DNA of 32,000 nucleotides from Wolbachia endosymbiont of Cimex lectularius. Its GTDB lineage: Bacteria; Pseudomonadota; Alphaproteobacteria; Rickettsiales; Anaplasmataceae. The notes beneath the pieces are model-generated. The model ran no database searches. It had not been told where the DNA came from and was given only the letters and a program-made list of their open reading frames with translations. The position numbers and the translations under genes are program-made. Positions 268 through 31,756 of the stretch are shown piece by piece (position 1 is the first letter of the stretch; each line of letters starts with the position of its first letter). The stretch is from contig NZ_AP013028.1 of NCBI RefSeq assembly GCF_000829315.1, forward strand, positions 660,001 through 692,000, written 5' to 3'.

Positions 268-304
268 CACGACACAATGTTACATAGTAAACGGTGTTAC
301 CCAA

Positions 305-615
305 CAGAAACAAAAAAACTACTTGACAACCTTCGCCAGTCCCCTTACAATAGAATTGTGGGTGTTTTAAGCCTAAAATTTATCTTTAATCTTTGTATTA
401 AGTGACAAAAGCACAGTATAAAACAAGGCGTGTTATGTTTAATTTTTGCAGCATGGACATTGCATGTCTTTATAATTTTTTGTCTACATTAGCTGGACCT
501 CGCTTATTAAGCGGTGTAAGAGAGAACCGGACGCCAAGTTTTTGAGAGAACAGTAAACAACTCACATTGCGGGGTTTCTTTTGTCTTTTTTCAAAATTCG
601 TTAAAAATTTAACTA
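305..615 (+). repeat. E-repeat copy 1 (full-length form of a promoter-bearing dispersed intergenic repeat)
   Basis: A-tract, then TTGACA (323-328), 17 nt, TACAAT (346-351). The body has a CGCTT-ATTA-AGCG hairpin and a GACGCCAAG box. The tail is GCGGGGTTTCTTTTGTCTTTTTTC. The same module order recurs at six other loci in the window. Confidence 0.7.
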
Positions 616-630
616 ATCTCATTTTTTTTA

Positions 631-803
631 CAAAAAAATTGCTTGACAAGTTTTGACGTTTCCCTTATCATGAAATTATGGGTATTTACAACCCCAAGGT
701 CAGCTACTTGTCAAGCGTATAGAACATTAACGCCAAGTTATTAAAATAGATATTGACCGGGGCTTCTTTTGCTTTTTTTTCGTGTAGTTTAGGTTATGCA
801 ACG
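631..803 (+). repeat. E-repeat copy 2 (short form), in tandem with copy 1
   Basis: A-tract, then TTGACA (643-648), 17 nt, TATCAT (666-671). An ACGCCAAG box is followed by the tail CCGGGGCTTCTTTTGCTTTTTTTTC and the end module TAGTTTAGGTTATGCAAC, which is also seen at 10631-10650 and 19646-19660. Confidence 0.65.
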
Positions 804-1414: not shown

Positions 1415-2344
1415 TTAACCTGCTCTTAGATCTAACTGATCACTATTGTCAGCTCGTGATCTGCTAATATCACTATCGTCAGAGTCGTTAGAACGTGAAA
1501 ATCTCGGTAACCTATTAGACGATATTGACTGCACTTCACTTAACTCGCTGCTTAGATCTGACTGATCGCTATCGCTACCAGAGTTTGACAGGCTCGATGA
1601 GCTCTCTTCCATTTCTCTATTACGCCTTTTTTCTAATGAGATAAGGATATATACTTCTACACCTTTGTCATCAATTCTGTTCCATCTTAAATCAAGTGAA
1701 GTAAGCCGTGAAAGATTACCATTAGCTAAAGCCTCTGCACCTTTTTTACTAATATTATTACCCATAAGATCAAGTTCAGTGAGACGTATAAGATTACCGT
1801 TAGCTAAGGCTTCTACACCTTTATTACCAATACGGTTGTTATTTAAATTAAGTGAAGTAAGACGTGCAAGATTGCTATCAGCTAAAGCCTCTGCACCCTT
1901 TTCACCAATATCATTACTCGATAAATTAAGCTCAGTAAGCCGTGAAAGATTACCATTAGCTAGAGCCTCTGCACCTTTATCACCAATTTCGTTGAAACGT
2001 AAGTCAAGTTTAGTAAGACGTGTGAGATTACCATTAGCTAGAGCCTCTACACTTTTGTACCTAATATGGTTGCATTTTAAATTAAGCTCAGCAAGATGTA
2101 CAAGATTGCCATTAGCTAACGCCTCTACTCCTTTTTCTCCAATATTATTATTCTGTAAATCAAGTGAAGTAAGATGTGTAAGCTTAGCCAATTCTCTCGC
2201 GTCTTCATTATTAATGCTTGCTATTTTTAAAGTAAGTTTTGTAATATATGTGTTACTTCGTAAAAAGCCTACTAGCTCTTTTACATTAACTCTAGTCCAT
2301 GATATTTCTAAAGCGTTACCTTTGACATATTGGTTAAAATCCAC
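1415..2344 (-). CDS. leucine-rich-repeat protein (about 6.5 units of 26 residues, NxIGxKGxEALANGNLxRLT signature) with a Ser/Asp-rich acidic C-terminal tail; eukaryote-like candidate effector
   Basis: 309-aa ORF with a clear 78-bp DNA periodicity. The repeat signature resembles ribonuclease-inhibitor-type LRRs. The tail is SSSSLSNSGSDSDQSD...DSDDSDISRSRADNSDQ. Confidence 0.8.
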   Translation of the reverse strand: MDFNQYVKGNALEISWTRVNVKELVGFLRSNTYITKLTLKIASINNEDARELAKLTHLTSLDLQNNNIGEKGVEALANGNLVHLAELNLKCNHIRYKSVEALANGNLTRLTKLDLRFNEIGDKGAEALANGNLSRLTELNLSSNDIGEKGAEALADSNLARLTSLNLNNNRIGNKGVEALANGNLIRLTELDLMGNNISKKGAEALANGNLSRLTSLDLRWNRIDDKGVEVYILISLEKRRNREMEESSSSLSNSGSDSDQSDLSSELSEVQSISSNRLPRFSRSNDSDDSDISRSRADNSDQLDLRAG

Positions 2345-2512
2345 TTTACCCTCCGATTAATATATTATGGGAATACCTTATATGGCATTTTAGTAACTGT
2401 CAACCACTTTATATAATGCTAGAAATTATATAAGATTTATATGTAAAAAAGCTCACACACCTCTTTTCTCAGCAGCTTTTTCTGTTGAGCTGTAGGACTT
2501 CTCAGAACCTGT

Positions 2513-2977
2513 TTAAAATCTTCGTAACAGGAGAGAAATGAAGGAGAGGACTATCATCTGTAAGCTAGTGTTGAGCTTCCGCTCGCAATTTTTCCACAAT
2601 CGCCTGCACTTTTCTAACCAGGCAAAAGAGCGTTCAACAACCCATCTTTTTGGCAATACGACGAAAGTGTGTAACTCACTTCGCTTTATTACTTCAACAG
2701 TCGCACCAATGATAGCTTTTATTTGTGTTGCAAAATTTTCTCCTGTGTAGCCAGCATCAACCAGTATGTTTTTAACTTCAGAGAGGTTTGCTTTAGCATT
2801 TTCGACCATTTTCACAGCACTGCTACGGTCAGTTGCTTCTGCCGTTGTTACATAAATTGCATGTGGCAAACCTTGTGTATCAACTGCAATATGGCGCTTT
2901 ATCCCTGAAATCTTTTTACCTGCATCATAGCCTTTTTTTTTCAGCAGTATCTGCGTTTTTAACGCTTTGAGAATCAA
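2513..2977 (-). CDS. IS transposase C-terminal DDE part (OrfB as called; its upstream portion is read in the wrong frame before the T9/A9 tract)
   Basis: GYDAGKKISGIKRHIAVDTQGLPHAIYVTTAEATDRS...VDAGYTG...RWVVERSFAWL is the IS5/IS427-type DDE core. Confidence 0.8.
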   Translation of the reverse strand: MILKALKTQILLKKKGYDAGKKISGIKRHIAVDTQGLPHAIYVTTAEATDRSSAVKMVENAKANLSEVKNILVDAGYTGENFATQIKAIIGATVEVIKRSELHTFVVLPKRWVVERSFAWLEKCRRLWKNCERKLNTSLQMIVLSFISLLLRRF

Positions 2978-2988
2978 TTATACAAAAG

Positions 2989-3309
2989 CTAGTTTTCTCT
3001 TTCCGACCATTGCTGATACGGACCTCTCCAACTAATTTTTTTTAAGACTAATTCCAACAAGCTTGGCTCTTCTCCATTCTTTTTACTCCACACTCGAAAA
3101 TAGTAATATACGCTTTCCCATCTTGGAAAACCCTTTGGTAACATCCTCCACTGACAACCACTTTTTAAGACGTACAACACCCCACAAAATACGTCATACA
3201 AATCAAGTTTTCTTGGTTTTGTTTTCTGCTTGCTACTCTCCAAAATTGGCCTGATTTTTTCAAACTGCTCTTGACTTATATTACTTGGATAACTTTTCTG
3301 CATAGACAC
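2989..3309 (-). CDS. IS transposase N-terminal ORF (OrfA, DNA-binding part)
   Basis: The 106-aa ORF is identical in all four complete IS copies. The pattern ...CGVLYVLKSGCQWRMLP... is typical of IS5-family N-termini. Confidence 0.85.
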   Translation of the reverse strand: MSMQKSYPSNISQEQFEKIRPILESSKQKTKPRKLDLYDVFCGVLYVLKSGCQWRMLPKGFPRWESVYYYFRVWSKKNGEEPSLLELVLKKISWRGPYQQWSEREN

Positions 3310-3365
3310 CTCATTATTAATCTATGCTTACTTTACCTCACATTTCCAAGATTTTAAACAGGTTC

Positions 3366-3565
3366 TAAGACGTACAACACCCCACAAAATACATCATACA
3401 AATCAAGTTTTCTTGGTTTTGTTTTCTGCTTGCTACTCTCCAAAATTGGCCTGATTTTTTCAAACTGCTCTTGACTTATATTACTTGGATAACTTTTCTG
3501 CATAGACACCTCATTATTAATCTATGCTTACTTTACCTCACATTTCCAAGATTTTAAACAGGTTC
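3366..3565 (-). mobile_element. 200-bp partial copy of the OrfA-proximal IS end, in direct tandem with 3166-3365
   Basis: 3366-3565 repeats 3166-3365 with one difference that I can see (3193 g versus 3393 a). The unit starts at an internal TAA. TCA at 3566-3568 matches TCA at 2502-2504. Confidence 0.85.
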
Positions 3566-3633
3566 TCAAGCTGTTTACTCATAATAGCGGTATTTTGGCT
3601 TTCCTGAAGTCTATCAATTTTAGATGGTCTGGT

Positions 3634-3858
3634 ACAACTGTACGAACATTGTGATTTGAGCTTACCACTAGGGTGTCATGCCAGTGTCAAGCACTGGCAT
3701 CCAGGAATTTTATTAAGTTGGTGAGTATAAAAGTAGCTGTTTTATGTTAAAATACGACGTTTTGATGATTAGGAAAGGCTGGATCCCAGTGTCGGAGCAC
3801 TGGGATGACACCGTCTGTTACGCGAATTACCTGCTAATTGCAATGTTCGTACAGTTGT
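3634..3858. mobile_element. MITE-like 225-bp palindromic element
   Basis: Perfect 18-bp terminal inverted repeats: ACAACTGTACGAACATTG (3634-3651) and CAATGTTCGTACAGTTGT (3841-3858). They are flanked by an identical 11-bp direct repeat GATGGTCTGGT (3623-3633 and 3859-3869). The interior carries two GC-rich hairpins (GCCAGTG-TCAA-GCACTGGC and CCCAGTG-TCGGA-GCACTGGG) and no ORF. Confidence 0.6.
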
Positions 3859-4132
3859 GATGGTCTGGTTGGGATGTCTTCCTATAAAAATTTGGCTTAT
3901 CTTTTACATCTAAACAGCATTAACACGATTTGGCTTTTTGTAGATTTTCTAGGAATTATCCTATTGAATTCTATGATATTATTTTTTGTAACATTGTTAT
4001 AAACATCATGGTGAGGGGGGCTGGAGGAATTTACCAAGTGATTTTTCTATGCTACCTGGTGTTGCGCAACTGCTTTGCTTGCTTTGGCCATATATTTATA
4101 TAAAATTAAAACAAATCAGAACCATAAATTGG

Positions 4133-7921: not shown

Positions 7922-9067
7922 ATGCTCACTTATATACACAAGTTAATTGATAAAAACCAAGGGTCAATATCGATCAGTGATTTCATGAATGCTGCTCTAT
8001 ACCATAAAGAGTACGGCTATTATATGAGTAAATTACCACTTGGCAAGGATGGTGATTTTATTACAGCACCTGAAATCAGTCAATTGTTCGGTGAAATAGT
8101 TGCAGTGTGGGTAATGCATACATGGGAAAAATTAGGAAAACCGTCAAAATTTTCTCTGGTTGAACTCGGGCCAGGTAAAGGAACACTTATCCACGATATA
8201 ATAAGAGTTACTAGAAAATACAATGACTTTTTTGATTCAGTGTCGATCCACCTAGTTGAAATAAGTCCTGCTTTACAGGAGGTACAAAAAGAAGAATTAA
8301 AGGGCTTAGATATTAACTGGCATGAAAATATCGATAGCCTACCAGAGCAACCAACCATCTTTCTAGCAAATGAATTTTTTGATGCCCTCCCAATAGACCA
8401 GTTTGTGTATCGTAACGGAGAATGGTATGAAAATAGGGTAGCAAAGCAAGATAACGGGGTGTTATCTAAAGTAGCTGACACTAGGATCCAGAAAAAAGAT
8501 CCCAGTGCCCCCTCTTTGTCATCCCAGTGCGTGACACTGGGATCCAGGAAAAAGGATGATGTCACCCAAATAGCTGACACTAGGATCCAGAAAAAGGAAT
8601 TGTGTGTTCCAGTATCAGCTACTCAGATGACAAACAAAAAACTTTTCGACGGCGCAGTAGTGGAAGTATGTTCGGCTGGAATTGAAATATTAAAAAGACT
8701 TGAGGAGAAGATATACAATAACAAAGGAGCTGCTTTGATCATAGATTATGGTTACGTATATCCTGAGTATAAGAGCACTCTGCAATCGGTAAAGCAACAC
8801 AAGTATGCCAATTTTCTTAAAAATGTTGGTAATAGCGATATTACTGCACTTGTAAACTTTCAAGCGTTAAGAGATTCATTAAAACATGTAGATTGCGAGG
8901 TTTTAACTCAGAGAGAATTTTTATATCTTTTTGGTATAAAAGAAAGAACGCAGGCTTTGATAAAAAATGCAAGTGATGAACAAAAAAATAGGATTTTTGG
9001 TGAATTCCTAAGGTTAACTGAAAACATGGGTACCCTCTTTAAAGTAATGTTGATCAATCATTTATAG
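7922..9067 (+). CDS. MidA/NDUFAF7-type class I SAM-dependent methyltransferase (DUF185) carrying an in-frame palindromic-element insertion
   Basis: DFITAPEISQLFGE...LVELGPGKGTL...ANEFFDALP...IDYGY are MidA-family motifs. About 58 aa in the middle are encoded by a repeat (see 8458-8632). Confidence 0.75.
   Translation: MLTYIHKLIDKNQGSISISDFMNAALYHKEYGYYMSKLPLGKDGDFITAPEISQLFGEIVAVWVMHTWEKLGKPSKFSLVELGPGKGTLIHDIIRVTRKYNDFFDSVSIHLVEISPALQEVQKEELKGLDINWHENIDSLPEQPTIFLANEFFDALPIDQFVYRNGEWYENRVAKQDNGVLSKVADTRIQKKDPSAPSLSSQCVTLGSRKKDDVTQIADTRIQKKELCVPVSATQMTNKKLFDGAVVEVCSAGIEILKRLEEKIYNNKGAALIIDYGYVYPEYKSTLQSVKQHKYANFLKNVGNSDITALVNFQALRDSLKHVDCEVLTQREFLYLFGIKERTQALIKNASDEQKNRIFGEFLRLTENMGTLFKVMLINHL
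8458..8632. repeat. GC-rich palindromic element (Wolbachia/Rickettsia palindromic-element type) translated in-frame within the MidA-like gene
   Basis: TAGCTGACACTAGGATCCAGAAAAA occurs twice (8471-8495 and 8571-8595). GATCCCAGTG...CACTGGGATC is an inverted repeat. Related motifs occur at 3670-3815, 14651-14705, 17758-17810 and 19526-19620. Confidence 0.7.
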
Positions 9068-10630: not shown

Positions 10631-11152
10631 GTTGCATAACCTAAACTAAGCAGAAAAAGGCAATTTACTGTCTGCCGCTACCTGCGGATCTCATCCGCTG
10701 ACACGTAGCGGGATGATGGTGGCTATAAAGGTTTAAGAAATTTACCAAGCAAGAAAAAAAAGCAAAAGAAGCCCCGTTGGTGGCTAATTATTTATATTAA
10801 CTTTATAAATTGGCGTTTTTTTATTCTAAACGTCTAATCTAGCTGCTTTTAAACCGCAACTGATCTAAATTTAAACGTTAAGAAATTTACTAAGCAAAGA
10901 AAAAGGTAGAAAAACCCCGTTAGCTAGTTATTCACTATCTATCTTTTAAATTGGCGTTTTTTATTGTCTTAAACGCTTTAACAAGCGCATTTTAGCTTAT
11001 ATTAGGTAAAAACCTTGAAAGTTTATAAAGACATGAGACGCCAAGTACATTGAGTTTTTTGTCATTTTATCTGCACAGACTGAAGATAAATAATAGCTTT
11101 AGTCTTATTATAAGGGTAACGGCGAAAGTTGTCAAGTAGTTTTTTTGTTTCT
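10631..11152 (-). repeat. E-repeat copy 3 (long form with a tandemly duplicated tail module)
   Basis: On the minus strand: TTGACA (11130-11135), 17 nt, TATAAT (11107-11112). The body has TTGGCGT...ACGCCAA and a CGCTT-GTTA-AAGCG hairpin. Two tail modules sit about 145 bp apart (about 10878-10963 and 10733-10820). Short GC palindromes follow, then the end module GTTGCATAACCTAAACTA (10631-10648). Confidence 0.7.
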
Positions 11153-14310: not shown

Positions 14311-14630
14311 CAATAGAAATGAAAAAAACTACTTGACAACCTTCGCCGTTACCCTTATTATAGCAATAAGGGTATTTCTGACTCAAAACTTGTTTTTGAT
14401 CTGCAGGCTCAATGACAAAATTCAGTAAAAAACTCAGGGTATTTTTTGGCGGATTGTATCAAATTATAGCGGCTGCATGTCTTTTTCATTTTTTCTACAT
14501 TCAGCCAAATCGCGCTTGAACTAAGCGTCAGCAAATTATTATAGCGCCAATTTAAAGTATTATAGAGTCAAAACTCGCCACTCGGGGTTTCTTTGCCTTT
14601 TTTTCTCGCTTGATAAAATTTTTAAATTTT
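14311..14630 (+). repeat. E-repeat copy 4
   Basis: TTGACA (14333-14338), 17 nt, TATTAT (14356-14361). TTGGCG...CGCCAA pairing and a CGCTT-GAACT-AAGCG hairpin are present. The tail is CTCGGGGTTTCTTTGCCTTTTTTTCTCGCTTG. Tail 14545-14612 is a near-identical inverted copy of 16366-16434. Confidence 0.7.
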
Positions 14631-14650: not shown

Positions 14651-14705
14651 AAATCCCAGTGCCAGCTACTTGGATGACAAGAAAGGAGCTACTTATATGA
14701 CACCA
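14651..14705. repeat. fragment of the short GC-rich palindromic element
   Basis: AAATCCCAGTGCCAGCTACTTGGATGACAAG...ATGACACC shares the CCCAGTG / AGCTACTTGGAT / GACACC motifs with the other copies. Confidence 0.4.
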
Positions 14706-16109: not shown

Positions 16110-16350
16110 ACCGCCCTTAAACTTCTAGTAAAACCCTTTTCGCATCAATAATACTCCCACTTAATTAAGTTTGAGTGAATCTGTAAGAGACATACTGATT
16201 GCTTATGCGGAAGGTGGTGTTTTTTGTACGCCAAGAAGTGCGTAAGGAACAGTTGGTGAAACAGGTGCCTGGATTATGCTGCGCAAGGCGTAAAGCTAAT
16301 AGAATTGTTATAAAAACAAATGTTCGTTCATAAATTGCAACTAGCTGTAA

Positions 16351-16702
16351 GCATTAAAAAATTTACCAAACGAGAAAAAAAGGCAAAAAAATCCCGAGTG
16401 GCGAGTTTTGACTCTATAATACTTTAAATTGGCGTACTATACTATCTTGAACGACTTATAAGCGCGTTTCAGCTTGTATAGGGAAAAACCTAGAAATCTA
16501 GGTGAAATTAATAAAGACATAAGGTGCACATAGTGCAAAAAATTAAACATAAGACGCCAACCGTGATACTTTCGTCGTTTAATCTGACAGATTGAAGCTA
16601 TTCATTTAGCTTCAATCTCATTGTAAGGGGGTTTGGAGGAATTTATCAAGTAGTTTTTTTCGTTTCTATTGGATGACGTTATAACTTTTTTCCACTGTTG
16701 CC
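16351..16702 (-). repeat. E-repeat copy 5
   Basis: On the minus strand: TTGATA (16644-16649), 18 nt, TACAAT (16620-16625). The 5' hairpin is GATTGAAGCTA-AATGAA-TAGCTTCAATC. TTGGCGT...ACGCCAA pairing and a TGCAC-TAT-GTGCA hairpin are present. The tail is CTCGGGATTTTTTTGCCTTTTTTTC. The upstream module (16650-16702) is nearly identical to 26811-26860. Confidence 0.7.
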
Positions 16703-16809
16703 TATTCACTTCCTGTTTAGTAGGAATTGGTATTAAGCAACCGTGAAGGTTACTTTTAGGGCATCTTGTCTACCTCATTTTACCGCTTCGTTGAATAGAT
16801 ACTATTTAA

Positions 16810-19504: not shown

Positions 19505-19525
19505 ATGCTTTTTACAAGGCACAAC

Positions 19526-19620
19526 GGTGTCATTCCAGCGTCACCGCTGGGATAACAGGAAAGGGATTATTTTCATGACACCGTCATAAAGAAACCAATG
19601 TTAGCTACTTGGATAATACC
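19526..19620. repeat. short GC-rich palindromic element copy, followed by an orphan E-repeat tail/end fragment (19625-19662)
   Basis: GGTGTCATTCCAGCGTCACCGCTGGGATAACAGG...CATGACACCGTC...AGCTACTTGGAT, followed by CGCCTTTTTTCTACTTAGTTTAGGTTATG. Confidence 0.5.
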
Positions 19621-19750
19621 CTAGCAATCTTCGCCTTTTTTCTACTTAGTTTAGGTTATGTAAAAAGTTGTAATTTGGCATTAGAATTTTGGTTGACTCG
19701 TTATTACACATACACCATTGCATATAGCAATGGTGTATGTGTATGGGCAG

Positions 19751-24471: not shown

Positions 24472-24559
24472 TAATAACCCTCTGCCTTTAGCTTGTTAGC
24501 TAATACAATTATTATGGGAATTAGTTGAATTTTTATTAAAGGAGGTTGTATCCAGTTCC

Positions 24560-24819
24560 CACTACACAGAAAGCGGACAGACAACAGTGGAAAAAAGCTA
24601 CCCCATAGAAACAAAAAAACTACTTGACAACTTTCGCCGTTATCCTTATAATGAGATTGAAGCTATTATTTATCTTCAGTCTGTGCAGATAAAACGACAA
24701 AAAACTCAATGTACTTGGCGTCTCATGTTTAATTTTTTGCACTATGTGCATCTCATGTCTTTATAAACTTTCAAGGTTTTACCTAATATAAGCTAAAATG
24801 CGCTCGTTAAAGCATTTAA
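24560..24819 (+). repeat. E-repeat copy 6, 3'-truncated by IS copy 3
   Basis: TTGACA (24624-24629), 17 nt, TATAAT (24647-24652). It has the 5' hairpin GATTGAAG-N11-CTTCAGTC, a TTGGCGT box, a TGCAC-TAT-GTGCA hairpin and a GCGCTCGTTAAAGC hairpin. It is almost identical to copy 3 until the IS junction. Confidence 0.7.
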
Positions 24820-24875
24820 GAACCTGTTTAAAATCTTGGAAATGTGAGGTAAAGTAAGCATAGATTAATAATGAG

Positions 24876-25196
24876 GTGTCTATGCAGAAAAGTTATCCAA
24901 GTAATATAAGTCAAGAGCAGTTTGAAAAAATCAGGCCAATTTTGGAGAGTAGCAAGCAGAAAACAAAACCAAGAAAACTTGATTTGTATGACGTATTTTG
25001 TGGGGTGTTGTACGTCTTAAAAAGTGGTTGTCAGTGGAGGATGTTACCAAAGGGTTTTCCAAGATGGGAAAGCGTATATTACTATTTTCGAGTGTGGAGT
25101 AAAAAGAATGGAGAAGAGCCAAGCTTGTTGGAATTAGTCTTAAAAAAAATTAGTTGGAGAGGTCCGTATCAGCAATGGTCGGAAAGAGAAAACTAG
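24876..25196 (+). CDS. IS transposase OrfA
   Basis: The 106-aa translation is identical to the other copies. Confidence 0.85.
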   Translation: MSMQKSYPSNISQEQFEKIRPILESSKQKTKPRKLDLYDVFCGVLYVLKSGCQWRMLPKGFPRWESVYYYFRVWSKKNGEEPSLLELVLKKISWRGPYQQWSEREN

Positions 25197-25207
25197 CTTT
25201 TGTATAA

Positions 25208-25672
25208 TTGATTCTCAAAGCGTTAAAAACGCAGATACTGCTGAAAAAAAAAGGCTATGATGCAGGTAAAAAGATTTCAGGGATAAAGCGCCATATTGCA
25301 GTTGATACACAAGGTTTGCCACATGCAATTTATGTAACAACGGCAGAAGCAACTGACCGTAGCAGTGCTGTGAAAATGGTCGAAAATGCTAAAGCAAACC
25401 TCTCTGAAGTTAAAAACATACTGGTTGATGCTGGCTACACAGGAGAAAATTTTGCAACACAAATAAAAGCTATCATTGGTGCGACTGTTGAAGTAATAAA
25501 GCGAAGTGAGTTACACACTTTCGTCGTATTGCCAAAAAGATGGGTTGTTGAACGCTCTTTTGCCTGGTTAGAAAAGTGCAGGCGATTGTGGAAAAATTGC
25601 GAGCGGAAGCTCAACACTAGCTTACAGATGATAGTCCTCTCCTTCATTTCTCTCCTGTTACGAAGATTTTAA
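25208..25672 (+). CDS. IS transposase DDE part (OrfB as called)
   Basis: The 154-aa ORF is identical to that of copy 1. Confidence 0.8.
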   Translation: MILKALKTQILLKKKGYDAGKKISGIKRHIAVDTQGLPHAIYVTTAEATDRSSAVKMVENAKANLSEVKNILVDAGYTGENFATQIKAIIGATVEVIKRSELHTFVVLPKRWVVERSFAWLEKCRRLWKNCERKLNTSLQMIVLSFISLLLRRF

Positions 25673-25682
25673 ACAGGTTCTA

Positions 25683-26879
25683 AGGCATTTTGATAGAGAA
25701 AAGATAAAATTTGAAATAAATGAAGAAGAAGCAAAAATAGTAAGGCAAATATTCGTGTGGATAGGACAAGAAAGAGTAAGTATAAGGGAAGTTATACGTA
25801 GACTAAGAGATAGGTCAATTAGAACGAGGAGTGGAAAAAAGGTTTGGCGTCCAATAGTAATTTGGAAGATGTTAAGAAATCCAGCGTATATGGGACAAGC
25901 AGCGTTTGGTAAATTAAAAAGGGTAAAAAGAAGAAGAAAAAATAAACAAAAGGTTTCTATCTATCGTGCAGATAAAGATAGTTGGATTTATATACCAGTA
26001 CCAAAGATAGTTGATGAAGGATTATTTAATAAGGTACAAAAGCAACTGGATGAAAATAGAAAAAGAGCAAGAATGCAGAGAAGGAAAGAGGTAAATTTAC
26101 TGCAAAGTCTAGTTGTATGTAAAAACTGTGGATATGCTTATGGCGGCGTGCACCATAGGGATGGGAAAAAAACGTATAGCTATTATCGCTGTAGTAGTAC
26201 CTCACATATTACTGATGGTGAGGAAAAATGTAACAATAAATTGGTTCGTAGAGAGATGTTAGAGACAGCAGTATGGGAAAAGGTAAAAGATTTGCTAAAA
26301 AACCCAGAGATGATAAAAAAGGAGTACCAACGCAGAATTTCAGAAAATAAAAGTGATGAACCATTAGGTAAAAAGCTTGCAAGAAGAGAAGAACAAATAA
26401 AAGAAGGTATAAAAGAATTAATGAAAGATTATTATAGTAAAGGAAACGCAGGTGAGAAACGATATATAAGTAAGGAAGTACTTGAACAGACAATCAGAGT
26501 ATTGAATGAAAGTTTAAAAGAAATAGAAGAAGAGAAAAAGAAGGTGACTAATCAAAGGGCAGTAAAAACGGGAATAAACCGTATTATAAGTAGCATAAAG
26601 AATTTTTATTCTAGTATGAAATCGAACTTGGAACAGCTAGATTGGGGAACTAAACGTGGTATTATTAAAGCACTGATAGGACGAATAGACATAGGCCGTG
26701 ACCAGGTGGAAATAAGATTTCAGATCGAAGAACCAGCGGAGGATGGGAAGATTTTTAATTTGTATCATTGTACTACATACCATAATAATGGGGCTGGTGA
26801 GATTTGTCAAGTAGTTTTTTTGTTTCTATTGGATGACATTATAGCTTTTTTCCACTGCCGTCTTTCGTCCTTTGTGTAG
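25683..26879 (+). pseudogene. large serine recombinase lacking its N-terminal catalytic (resolvase) domain; phage-WO/island-type integrase remnant
   Basis: The frame is open from the IS boundary (RHFDREKIKFEINEEEAKIVRQIFVWIGQERVSIREV...). It has the recombinase domain, a zinc ribbon (CKNCGYAYGG...YYRCSS) and a long coiled coil. The last 25 or so codons run into an E-repeat promoter module. Confidence 0.75.
26791..26860 (-). repeat. E-repeat copy 7 (promoter and upstream module only)
   Basis: On the minus strand: TTGACA (26805-26810), 17 nt, TATTAT. The upstream module CAAGTAGTTTTTTTGTTTCTATTGGATGACATTATAGCTTTTTTCCACTG is nearly identical to 16646-16697. Confidence 0.55.
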
Positions 26880-26940
26880 AGGAAATCAGTATGAGTATGG
26901 CCTACTAACGCTTATATTTCTGTAAAGCAAAAAATTTTAG

Positions 26941-27017
26941 TGGGGCGAGCGACCAGGATCGAACTGGCGACATTCAGTACCACAAACTGACGCTCTACCA
27001 ACTGAGCTACGCCCGCC
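26941..27017 (-). tRNA. tRNA-His (anticodon GTG) with encoded G-1 and CCA
   Basis: 77-nt cloverleaf. An extra 5' G sits opposite C73. The acceptor is GCGGGCG/CGCTCGC, the anticodon loop is TTGTGGT and the T loop is TTCGATC. Confidence 0.9.
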
Positions 27018-27134
27018 AAAGTATAAAATTTCTAACATACCAGCGCAAAAAGTCAATTGACTATTTAAGTAAATTCTTTTACTTCAAATTGTATTATAGT
27101 TATATGTAAAATCGTGGGGTTTCTAAGAACCTGT

Positions 27135-27491
27135 TTAAAATCTTCGTAACAGGAGAGAAATGAAGGAGAGGACTATCATCTGTAAGCTAGTGTTGAGCTT
27201 CCGCTCGCAATTTTTCCACAATCGCCTGCACTTTTCTAACCAGGCAAAAGAGCGTTCAACAACCCATCTTTTTGGCAATACGACGAAAGTGTGTAACTCA
27301 CTTCGCTTTATTACTTCAACAGTCGCACCAATGATAGCTTTTATTTGTGTTGCAAAATTTTCTCCTGTGTAGCCAGCATCAACCAGTATGTTTTTAACTT
27401 CAGAGAGGTTTGCTTTAGCATTTTCGACCATTTTCACAGCACTGCTACGGTCAGTTGCTTCTGCCGTTGTTACATAAATTGCATGTGGCAA
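27135..27491 (-). CDS. IS transposase DDE part (called from an internal Met, A10 variant)
   Basis: The 118-aa translation is identical to that of copy 2. Confidence 0.75.
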   Translation of the reverse strand: MPHAIYVTTAEATDRSSAVKMVENAKANLSEVKNILVDAGYTGENFATQIKAIIGATVEVIKRSELHTFVVLPKRWVVERSFAWLEKCRRLWKNCERKLNTSLQMIVLSFISLLLRRF

Positions 27492-27611
27492 ACCTTGTGT
27501 ATCAACTGCAATATGGCGCTTTATCCCTGAAATCTTTTTACCTGCATCATAGCCTTTTTTTTTTCAGCAGTATCTGCGTTTTTAACGCTTTGAGAATCAA
27601 TTATACAAAAG

Positions 27612-27932
27612 CTAGTTTTCTCTTTCCGACCATTGCTGATACGGACCTCTCCAACTAATTTTTTTTAAGACTAATTCCAACAAGCTTGGCTCTTCTCCAT
27701 TCTTTTTACTCCACACTCGAAAATAGTAATATACGCTTTCCCATCTTGGAAAACCCTTTGGTAACATCCTCCACTGACAACCACTTTTTAAGACGTACAA
27801 CACCCCACAAAATACGTCATACAAATCAAGTTTTCTTGGTTTTGTTTTCTGCTTGCTACTCTCCAAAATTGGCCTGATTTTTTCAAACTGCTCTTGACTT
27901 ATATTACTTGGATAACTTTTCTGCATAGACAC
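27612..27932 (-). CDS. IS transposase OrfA
   Basis: The 106-aa translation is identical to the other copies. Confidence 0.85.
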   Translation of the reverse strand: MSMQKSYPSNISQEQFEKIRPILESSKQKTKPRKLDLYDVFCGVLYVLKSGCQWRMLPKGFPRWESVYYYFRVWSKKNGEEPSLLELVLKKISWRGPYQQWSEREN

Positions 27933-28066
27933 CTCATTATTAATCTATGCTTACTTTACCTCACATTTCCAAGATTTTAAACAGGTTCTAAGATGTACAG
28001 CCCCACAATTCCTCCTTTGATGGTGTTTTTTCTCAAACTTTATCATACTTTCTGGGACCAAACTCT

Positions 28067-30954: not shown

Positions 30955-31756
30955 GACAATTTAAGTCAATATAGTTTATACTATCTCGATGAATAAATAA
31001 AATCAATTTGCATGTATTAACCACTAATTAAACTGATTATCATGTAATTATATCAGGGTTAGGGGGTTATAGGAAACCGGTCAGATTAGGTTTTTAATCT
31101 AACCTGACCGATAGCTTTAATAGTGAGGTAAGCCTCAATATAACACGCTCAATTTATAGTACTACATTCGTGCATAATCTATTTGAAATTTGTGCACGGG
31201 TGTTAGTAAATTATTTACTTTTTGAAATAAAGCTCAGCATTAATTTTTTACGGTTAGCACAAAATTAGTTATTTCCTTATTTTATATTACCATACTAAAA
31301 TATCTATTATAGCATAAAGTTATTAATAATATTTGTATTTTAGCATATTAGATGAAGGTTCAGTCTGACAGTCTAGTGTCATCCAAGTAGCTGGCTGGCA
31401 TCCAAGAAATTTTGCTTATAAGCGAGCGCGCTAAGTTAGTGAACATAAAAGTAGCAAATCTTGTGTTACGCTGGCTAAGTTTTCCCACTTCATACCGCAG
31501 CAACCGCTAACGCTAGCGGAACAATGGTTTTTTGAATCAGATCTCTTGTATAGCCAATTTATGGTGAGAAAAATACAGATGAGCACCGTAGAATACTTGA
31601 AGTTTGAGGAGCGCAAGCAAGTTTTGACGCAAAATCAAAAAGCAGGTTATGCAAAAGGTTTACTGTTATATAGCTTAATAATTAAATATTTCATTGACTT
31701 ATTAACTATTTTTATGTATTATTATACTATCAGTAGTTTATATCAAAACATCAATA

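Follow-up and report, generated by a model that had tools for sequence, protein, structure and literature searches.

A promoter-led intergenic repeat family of Wolbachia and its probable use as an attachment target by phage WO

The window analysed here is a stretch of 32,000 nt from the genome of the Wolbachia endosymbiont of Cimex lectularius (NZ_AP013028.1, positions 660,001 to 692,000), and our subject is a dispersed repeat, led by a sigma70-like promoter, that recurs between the genes of this stretch in seven numbered copies and several partial pieces (Table 1). The repeats are genuine copies of a Wolbachia-wide intergenic family. We consider it probable that this family is Wolbachia-specific and recombining, that its full units are self-contained non-coding transcription units, and that their -10/start region is a target of phage WO.

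Results

Copies in the window and in other Wolbachia

The 17-mer AAAAAACTACTTGAYAA, which covers the A-tract and the -35 box, matches the window seven times with at most two mismatches, against 0.08 matches expected, and none of 100 shuffles reached seven. Repeat finding joins all the loci that had been named in an earlier examination of the DNA without database searches (hereafter the sequence-only reading), eight of the pieces being alignable, and a family profile built from 59 bodies and searched against the window recovers both the full bodies, one of them cut by an insertion sequence (IS), and units that consist of the 3' half only (Table 1). These three results bear out the dispersed repeat family where the sequence-only reading had placed it. 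Its list of nine loci stands in part: the family is real, but the pieces at 26791-26860 and 3990-4040 are promoter halves fused to arms of phage WO and not decayed copies. The window contains five units that are full or IS-cut, a single short one, further tail units that lack a promoter, and two promoter-only pieces.

Scanning species-representative genomes with a promoter pattern yielded at least 120 loci, nearly all of them in Wolbachia, with about seven chance matches in Clostridia and other taxa. The genomes that carry the pattern include, among the matches listed, wPaur, wTis, wMoz, wStur, the Wolbachia of Cantharis and three termite-type metagenome-assembled genomes (MAGs); about 135 promoters were extracted from these loci for the description of the unit. 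The pattern missed supergroup A because the wMel promoters read AAAAG(A/T)TTACTTGACA, and the AAAAGNTTACTTGACA-type variant is the one to include when copies are gathered across supergroups A-F. Matches of the 17-mer in viral contigs (at least 120, in contigs with a single match) were presumed to be due to chance and were set aside uninspected and unused.

Anatomy of the unit

In many copies the upstream part reads CAATAGAAAC, A7, CTAC, TTGACA, 17 nt, and TATCAT or TATAAT, and the canonical body ends with GGGGYTTCTTTTGYC followed by T6-9, the length from the -10 box to the T-run being 240-249 nt in 38 of 61 full bodies. The hexamers and the spacers of 17 nt (18 in copy 5) given in the sequence-only reading were confirmed at five promoters, and all the motifs that it named were found, namely the GATTGAAGCTA hairpin, TTGGCGT...ACGCCAA, TGCAC-TAT-GTGCA, CGCTT-loop-AAGCG, and the tail GGGGYTTCTTTTGC with its T-run. 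Among 18 bystander copies that were not chosen by the pattern, TTGACA is exact in 16, and about half lack the final T of the -10 box. The subfamilies diverge chiefly in the first 60 nt. Upstream of the units the homology ends some 12 nt ahead of the A-tract; optional modules of at least three kinds occur upstream. Many units have behind them a second, promoterless copy of their 3' half that measures about 145 nt (10880->10740 is the example in the window), and profile matches limited to the 3' half are common in related genomes.

A putative internal promoter is seen in the body (TTGCAC or TTGCAG, 18 nt, and TATAAT, TATAAA or TATTAA), at 438-480, 16505-16545 on the minus strand and 24729-24771; it overlaps the invariant CATGTCTTTAT.

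Transcription and start sites

The family promoter is active, as published start sites of its wMel and wAlbB homologues demonstrate. The supplement of Woolfit et al. [quoted passage not shown] The supplement of PMC12558409 gives Cappable-seq starts with 50 upstream bases, among them 131390, 713865 and 1067756 of wMelPop-CLA and 280648 of wAlbB. Three of these sequences were scored with the profile (IGR-1021, E 5e-48; IGR-1047, E 5e-36; start 131390, E 1e-24), while the family promoter and body of 713865, 1067756 and wAlbB 280648 were recognized by inspection of the supplementary sequences. In the upstream 50-mers of the four Cappable-seq starts, TTGACA-17-TATCAT (or TATAGT) is followed by six bases and then by the start, so that the expected initiation about 7 nt after the -10 box holds for the homologues with both methods. 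The two RACE coordinates are absent from the Cappable-seq tables, and the same tables gave matches when searched by sequence.

The start sites predicted for the window (Table 1) follow from the position of the start at the seventh base after the -10 box in the wMel and wAlbB homologues. Base 1 of RNA 131390 aligns to position 24659, the predicted start of copy 6, and base 2 to position 11099. Like these homologues, the window's own copies would be transcribed. Family motifs are present in many primers from the work of Woolfit et al. on intergenic regions selected by RNA-seq, and six of these primers, which represent five regions, fit copies of the window with no more than 4 substitutions. The primers all lie on one strand, from which most of the failed reactions in that work would follow.

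The sequence-only reading had also expected the transcript to end at the T tract, and here the published clones contradict it: as the parts of PMC4349823 that concern these regions report, the IGR-1047 clone does not stop at the first T-run, and IGR-1021 shares a transcript with the coding sequence (CDS) downstream. No terminator-like site was called at any unit tail, and the sole terminator-like hairpin stands at the end of the copy 3 array (10676->10659). The T-rich tail is thus present with its motif and T-run, but it is not a canonical hairpin terminator.

Genes upstream of the units are co-oriented with them in 81 cases and opposed in 42, while genes downstream are co-oriented in 28 and opposed in 27. 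This points to tolerance of the units at the 3' ends of genes rather than to a general promoter role, and because of the even split downstream the idea of a cassette that generally drives the genes behind it was rejected. Read-through may nevertheless be important at single loci, for instance from copy 5 into the ankyrin gene, from copies 1-3 towards tRNAs, and at WD1244 in wMel.

The -10/start region as an attachment site of phage WO

Judged by their sequence, the promoter-only copies at 26782-26830 and 4006-4046 are phage WO attachment junctions of the sr2WO type with the crossover at the -10 box. The open reading frame (ORF) 25755-26879 represents the 3' part of a gene for a large serine recombinase and shares 82% identity with its WOVitA1 counterpart, and the similarity to phage ends at the -10 box of copy 7. 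The attP of the packaged WOVitA1 phage (KX522565) reads gacgtcat/gatgtgtataacaatgttac (the slash marking the junction, here and below), where the wVitA prophage record instead runs on into the family body: the bacterial flank in the WOVitA1 prophage record (L122, 2540-2736; gtgaagctattgtatttgctttcgccaatctgcagattaaaagg...cttatgtttaattttttgca) is a family body nearly identical to the wMel IGR-1047 RNA. The window junction at 4046->3990 reads ...caccat/gatgtttataacaatgttac, and the junctions of promoter and P' arm in two other genomes read TATCATGATAATGA/GTACAATGATAC (locus L128) and CCCTTATCAT/GACGTGTATAACAATGTT (L246, OZ181655); the same P' arm accordingly stands beside a family promoter in the window (4046->4006), in L128 and in L246. 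An uninterrupted site exists in a related MAG (L148), in the order tRNA-His, upstream module U1, promoter and intact body; its positions 145-510 match window 26802-27128 with 85% identity, and the intact body follows where the window has the end of the recombinase. [quoted passage not shown]

At copy 7 (CATTATTAT/ggtatgtagtacaatgatac) the promoter half joins the reverse complement of the recombinase (P) arm and not the P' arm, i.e. the junction is inverted (26770-26830). The att core TCATGA is palindromic, and integration in either orientation or a later inversion would explain this arrangement. As a part of the whole reading it is probable that the -10/start segment serves as the chromosomal attachment site of an sr2WO-type large serine recombinase, as we predict. 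Fragments of prophage ends, which the sequence-only reading had allowed for, account for two of its nine loci and not for the family as a whole. The locus L246 had been reached via its RNase J homologue and was rejected as a wMel-type orthologous locus, since it is not syntenic and offers one att junction only.

In L128 (5300-6700) the family promoter, the phage P' arm (about 430 nt) and a gene for a leucine-rich repeat (LRR) protein follow each other in one orientation. The window has the same order on the minus strand (1415-4046), interrupted ahead of the LRR gene (2344->1415) by IS copies at 2501-3366 and 3356-3570. Once the phage has integrated, its terminal gene may come under the control of the host promoter.

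Does the RNA have a conserved structure?

An alternative to the reading of the units as plain transcription units is that they encode, in many copies, a structured small RNA that acts in trans, in which the hairpins and the invariant CATGTCTTT are functional and the T-rich tract forms the 3' end. The active promoter with starts mapped in homologues and the uniform unit length of about 240 nt are in keeping with it, as is the presence of family motifs in many wMel regions that RNA-seq had singled out as small RNA (sRNA) candidates. A five-helix model, taken from the hairpins of the sequence-only reading and controlled by 500 shuffles, pairs in 86% of the cells against about 35% for slid partners, which shows that the palindromes are real; in the long-range helix G-U pairs outnumber A-C (31 vs 9), and the minimum free energy (MFE) z-scores of B, C and F type copies lie at -2 to -3.

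However, RNAalifold applied to the 59-sequence alignment returns 3 pairs at -1.38 kcal/mol, so that the consensus structure is essentially nil. Pairs changed on both sides number 8, compared to 6.5 in the shuffles (131/500), further pair types number 30, compared to 31.3 (438/500), and the covariation score of 0.114 against 0.107, reached by 5 of 500 shuffles, was obtained against a control that related sequences can beat without any structure. In the 5' helix it is A-C that exceeds G-U (40 vs 31), the z-scores of A and E type copies are about 0, and the mean is -0.9 in the sense and -0.55 in the antisense direction. If the RNA begins 7 nt after the -10 box, it does not include the outer bases (GATT) of the "5' hairpin", which lie upstream of it, and the 5'-terminal hairpin is significantly stable in copy 5 only (z = -3.1). 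A canonical terminator is lacking, transcripts are documented to continue into the next unit and into a CDS, and Rfam contains no matching family, permissive searches (E up to 5) with copies 1+2 and copy 5 having given only sub-threshold chance matches. The proposal of stems kept by selection in a structured sRNA thus finds no support in the RNAalifold result, the shuffle-level paired changes and the mean z-score. This reading is weak, and we consider it unlikely; the RNA would then have no structure-dependent function in trans.

Spread of the copies

The units appear to have spread and been homogenized by homologous recombination or gene conversion, not by transposition. The orthologous sites of copies 3, 4, 6 and 7 are conserved between the window and related MAGs, and their contents are exchanged: the nuoF/tRNA-Lys site holds a unit of copy 3 type in the window but a dimer of copy 1 and copy 2 types in L184, and the RNase J site holds a chimeric unit in L146. 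The dimer of copies 1 and 2 recurs with 90-93% identity at loci L213, L184, L179, L221, L199 and L169, and copies 4 and 5 share 94% identity in their tails. Copies also mark breaks of synteny. Conserved sites with swapped contents, together with the lack of consistent inverted ends, make recombination between copies the likeliest mechanism.

The units could instead be non-autonomous mobile elements, i.e. a "mobile promoter" akin to a miniature inverted-repeat transposable element (MITE), transposing with an outward-reading promoter. Their copy number breaks short-read assemblies, many MAG contigs ending inside units and often with outward promoters at both ends; the units are dispersed near tRNA genes and the 3' ends of genes; the copy L129 is bracketed by TTGCATAACC ... 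GGTTATGCAA; and inverted-repeat ends are recorded for repeat families of unknown type in the wMel genome paper (PMC368164). Nonetheless, among 66 copies TTGCRTAA is found upstream in 5, TTAYGCAA downstream in 11, and both in only 2, which leaves no consistent terminal inverted repeats. The 5' boundary of the unit is the promoter itself, preceded by at least three different upstream modules, strains of 90-97% identity keep the orthologous positions but have mosaic contents, and no transposase is associated with the units. We therefore regard this explanation as quite improbable. A further occurrence of GGTTATGCAA, at 31645, is a chance match.

An ankyrin gene of 454 aa lies between copies 4 and 5, which point towards each other; the last 81 nt of the two copies are those that share the identity given above. 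In four draft assemblies (the three termite-type MAGs and wPaur) profile matches reveal at least 6 contigs with outward promoters at both ends, compared to 3 that run from promoter to tail, and three further contigs have matches of the promoter pattern at both ends. These contigs bounded by outward-facing promoters suggest that convergent pairs of units are common.

Remaining alternatives

That all copies are scars of phage WO ends, with promoter and body as phage-derived att flanks of decayed prophages, is suggested by the two phage junctions in the window and by the recombinase fragment and IS elements nearby, but it is a very remote prospect. Neither flank of attP in the packaged WOVitA1 genome contains family sequence, and the unoccupied site L148 has an intact unit and no phage DNA. 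BLAST searches against 50,697 phage records gave no match for copies 1+2 and copy 5, the recombinase fragment alone having matched, and most copies lie between housekeeping genes. No family sequence was found at the ends of the wRi WORiA record or at the far end of the WOVitA1 prophage record.

It is hardly credible that the units encode a small protein, e.g. a type I toxin-like peptide, from the conserved ATGTTTAAT: a 37-codon frame is kept in C and F copies and one wMel copy overlaps an annotated 200-nt "hypothetical protein", but the start codon is missing in 22 of 59 copies, the others stop after 4-39 codons in differing frames (outside those that keep the long frame, after 4-13 codons or with a shifted frame, since the length of the T-run varies), no Shine-Dalgarno sequence is present, and the peptide is not conserved across subfamilies. 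The 37-codon frame, MFNFLHYVHLMSLLISPRLLGFSLYKLKRAYKSFKTV, is open in about 19 copies of the C and F subfamilies, including copy 5 (16558->16445) and C/F-type copies at L124, L143, L151, L164, L177, L188, L214, L219, L226 and L232, and is absent or cut elsewhere.

Features of the window

The host strain is supergroup-F-like, the RNase J of the window being 98% identical to its homologue from wCfeF (supergroup F), and the genes that flank the repeats are 93-97% identical to those of termite-type "Rickettsiales" MAGs and wPaur. The gene content is typical of Wolbachia (ankyrin and LRR proteins, NuoF, RNase J, TolB, GltX, RsmH, Ffh). Downstream of copy 2 lies tRNA-Glu (883-955), and downstream of the copy 3 array tRNA-Lys (10531->10458); copy 4 is convergent with the ankyrin gene 16109->14745, and copy 5 has the same orientation as the ankyrin gene downstream of it. 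Four tRNA genes are the sole matches of Rfam in the whole window at gathering threshold.

Table 1. Repeat units, partial pieces and associated phage WO and IS sequences in the window (minus-strand intervals in the inner columns run from high to low; starts are predicted)
Feature	Position	Strand	17-mer match	Promoter	Predicted start	Profile match	Remarks
Copy 1, full unit	303..611	+	313	TTGACA-17-TACAAT, 323-351	358	364-591, E 1.7e-50	A-tract 312-318, -35 box 323-328, -10 box 346-351, body to T-run 591
Copy 2, short unit	625..801	+	633	TTGACA-17-TATCAT, 643-671	678	707-779	3' half only; T-run 773-780; tail-end motif TAGTTTAGGTTATGCAA
Phage WO P' arm (gatgtttataacaatgttacaaaaaataatatcatagaattcaatagg...)	3571..4005	-					Cut by IS copies at 3570
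Degenerate promoter half (ttggta...caccat)	4006..4046	-					Ends in att core CATGA; putative bacterial side of attL-type junction
Copy 3 array end module	10632..10735	-					23-bp-type hairpin (catcccgctacgtgtcagcggatg); terminator-like hairpin GGCAGACAGTAAATTGCC + T5; tail-end motif
Promoterless tail unit	10740..10880	-				10837-10755, profile positions 156-240	3'-half duplicate, 145 nt start-to-start from preceding tail
Copy 3, full unit	10897..11152	-	11145	TTGACA-17-TATAAT (consensus), 11135->11107	11100	11104-10900, E 1.4e-40	First T-rich tail at about 10919->10897
Copy 4, full unit	14311..14625	+	14323	TTGACA-17-TATTAT, 14333-14361	14368	14376-14603	T-run to 14604
Copy 5, full unit with upstream module U1	16350..16735	-	16659	TTGATA-18-TACAAT, 16649->16620	16613	16618-16376, E 8e-61	U1 16735->16665; T-run to 16376
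Orphan tail-end motif (ttcgccttttttctacttagtttaggttatgtaa)	19625..19663	+					From repeat finding
Copy 6, IS-cut	24552..24818	+	24614	24624-24652	24659	24654-24822	U1 module; body cut at about 24819 by IS5-type element
IS5-type insertion sequence	24819..25684	+					Truncates copy 6 and, at other side, recombinase gene
Recombinase 3' part, phage WO sr2WO type	25755..26781	+					Large serine recombinase, 82% identical to WOVitA1; gene end is the phage arm abutting copy 7
Copy 7, promoter half only, with U1	26782..26890	-	26820	-35 box 26810->26805, -10 box 26787->26782			Putative bacterial half of phage attachment site, fused at -10 box to phage arm

The IS5-type element is present in five copies of 866 nt, all 100% identical. 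The copy at 27122-27995, beside tRNA-His, has no counterpart at the orthologous site in the related MAG Gx481_bin163 (L148, position 503) and is therefore a recent insertion. The LRR-protein gene contains five tandem periods of 78 nt at 1656-2185, which correspond to 26-residue leucine-rich repeats.

A second short palindromic family, about 23 bp long, stands behind many tails in two types, ATCCCAGTG-loop-CACTGGGAT and ATCCCGCTA-CGTGT-TAGCGGGAT. Its sites in the window are 10690-10714 (-), 14655-14690 (+), 8469-8598 (+) and 19525-19560 (+), the third of these comprising three tandem copies within the protein-coding ORF 7922-9067. These palindromes are probably the hairpins described for VNTR loci.

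The orthologue of the wMel small RNA ncrwmel02 (ggttataggaaaccggtcagattaggtttttaatctaacctgaccgatagctttaatagtgaggtaagc), not annotated by Rfam, lies at 31056-31180 (+) and matches the published 5' RACE clone and amplicon. Ncrwmel02 was ruled out as a member of the repeat family, for its sequence is different and its orthologue lies elsewhere in the window.

Discussion

Proposed course of events

In our reading, a unit consists of a UP-like A-tract, TTGACA, 17 nt, TATNAT and a start at the seventh base after the -10 box, and it would give rise to an AT-rich RNA of about 240 nt with short local hairpins, no conserved frame, and a U-rich tract without a proper terminator hairpin. Transcripts would end inefficiently and run on into the promoterless, VNTR-like 3'-half tail units or into whatever lies downstream. 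The copies would remain at conserved intergenic positions while recombination or gene conversion exchanges their contents between loci. Integration of the sr2WO type would split the promoter from the RNA body, and the two promoter-only copies of the window would be such junctions.

Several points weigh against this interpretation. The sequence CATGTCTTT and several hairpins are very strongly conserved, which a neutral leader would not explain, and a function at the level of RNA or DNA may exist. The activity of the window copies is deduced from homologues that are 72-87% identical, and the mechanism of recombination from mosaicism rather than from direct observation. The downstream genes, co-oriented in 28 cases and opposed in 27, mean that the units are not general drivers of their neighbors. 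Finally, the identification with VNTR-105/141 relies on architecture (the 145-nt spacing and the 23-bp-type hairpins), on the sr2WO literature and on a loose likeness of both IGR-921 primers to the window, noted by eye and with indels.

It is tempting to go further and to regard these promoter-led non-coding RNA genes as a Wolbachia-wide, multi-copy landing pad of sr2WO, on which the phage integrates in either orientation, the promoter is handed to the terminal phage gene and the RNA body is silenced. Integration in either orientation would be possible because the crossover lies in the -10/start region and the TCATGA core is palindromic, and both L128 and the ancestor of the window have the promoter, the P' arm and an LRR effector-like gene in co-orientation. 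This extension is tentative and rather unlikely to hold as a whole; if true, it would couple lysogeny to the expression of genes for interaction with eukaryotes and to the loss of a host RNA.

Apart from this, the family explains where short-read assemblies of Wolbachia break, it provides a strong native promoter that is compact and whose start is mapped, and it offers a catalogue of natural landing sites for serine integrases in an organism that is not yet transformable. A further prediction is that one of the more active classes of promoters escapes transcript studies because of their multi-mapping filters.

Comparison with known systems

The closest known counterpart is the attB of sr2WO (WOVitA1). 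There, too, a family body flanks the prophage on the bacterial side, and the window and its relatives contain junctions of promoter and phage arm at the -10 box as well as an unoccupied site. The differences are that the passages on attB in PMC5062602 and PMC9203015 describe an intergenic repeat or VNTR, rather than the -10/start region of a multi-copy promoter-led unit, that the window strain is supergroup-F-like while the known site belongs to supergroup A, and that at one of the window junctions the promoter half meets the recombinase arm in inverted orientation.

VNTR-105 and VNTR-141 of wMel are intergenic arrays with tandem periods of 105 and 141 bp and 23-bp hairpins with 9-bp stems (Riegler et al. 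2005, 2012; PMC3287509). Similarly, the tail units of the window are spaced by 145 nt (10728-10919) beside tRNA genes, where hairpins of the ATCCCGCTA-CGTGT-TAGCGGGAT and ATCCCAGTG-TCAAG-CACTGGGAT types are also found; those at 10714->10690 and after copy 4 have imperfect stems and were compared with the verbal description in the VNTR paper only. A primer for IGR-921, the VNTR-105 spacer, holds the reverse complement of the tail motif, and both IGR-921 primers resemble the window loosely by eye, with indels and with no match within 4 substitutions. Unlike our description, the VNTR papers treat the arrays as markers, with no promoter or transcript. The family probably overlaps with VNTR-105-type loci. 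The statement of the sequence-only reading that no named family explains the repeats therefore remains valid insofar as no single named family does so, but the repeats overlap with the sr2WO attB of phage WO and, most likely, with loci of the VNTR-105 type.

Among the wMel intergenic transcripts (PMC4349823) and the orphan or intragenic starts (PMC12558409), IGR-1021, IGR-1047 and 131390 match the profile; the accounts of them in the source papers do not group them as one family, and the text of PMC4349823 on sRNA candidates drops IGR-1021 and IGR-1047. The named wMel sRNAs ncrwmel01 and ncrwmel02 differ from the family in sequence. The repeat families of unknown type in the wMel genome, such as repeat family 8 with 45 copies in Wu et al. 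2004 (PMC368164), are likewise multi-copy non-IS repeats in intergenic DNA. Thus most of the pieces were already known separately, as VNTR-105/141, the sr2WO attB, discarded sRNA candidates, orphan starts and possibly a repeat family of the genome paper; a limited literature search found no paper that joins the VNTR loci, attB, sRNA candidates and orphan starts.

The Correia elements of Neisseria and the "putative mobile promoters" recur in many copies between genes, carry a sigma70 promoter with them and are transcribed, and in these respects the Wolbachia family resembles them. However, Correia elements are MITEs of 100-155 bp with terminal inverted repeats and TA target duplications, whereas the Wolbachia units have no consistent inverted ends, measure about 280 bp plus optional tail units, and are mosaic by recombination. 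A promoter-bearing intergenic repeat that also serves as a target of phage integration is not a new kind of object, and no new kind of biological system is revealed here; rather, the VNTR typing loci, the "repetitive" attB of the WOVitA1 type, the discarded sRNA candidates and the orphan or intragenic starts appear to be one family with one anatomy.

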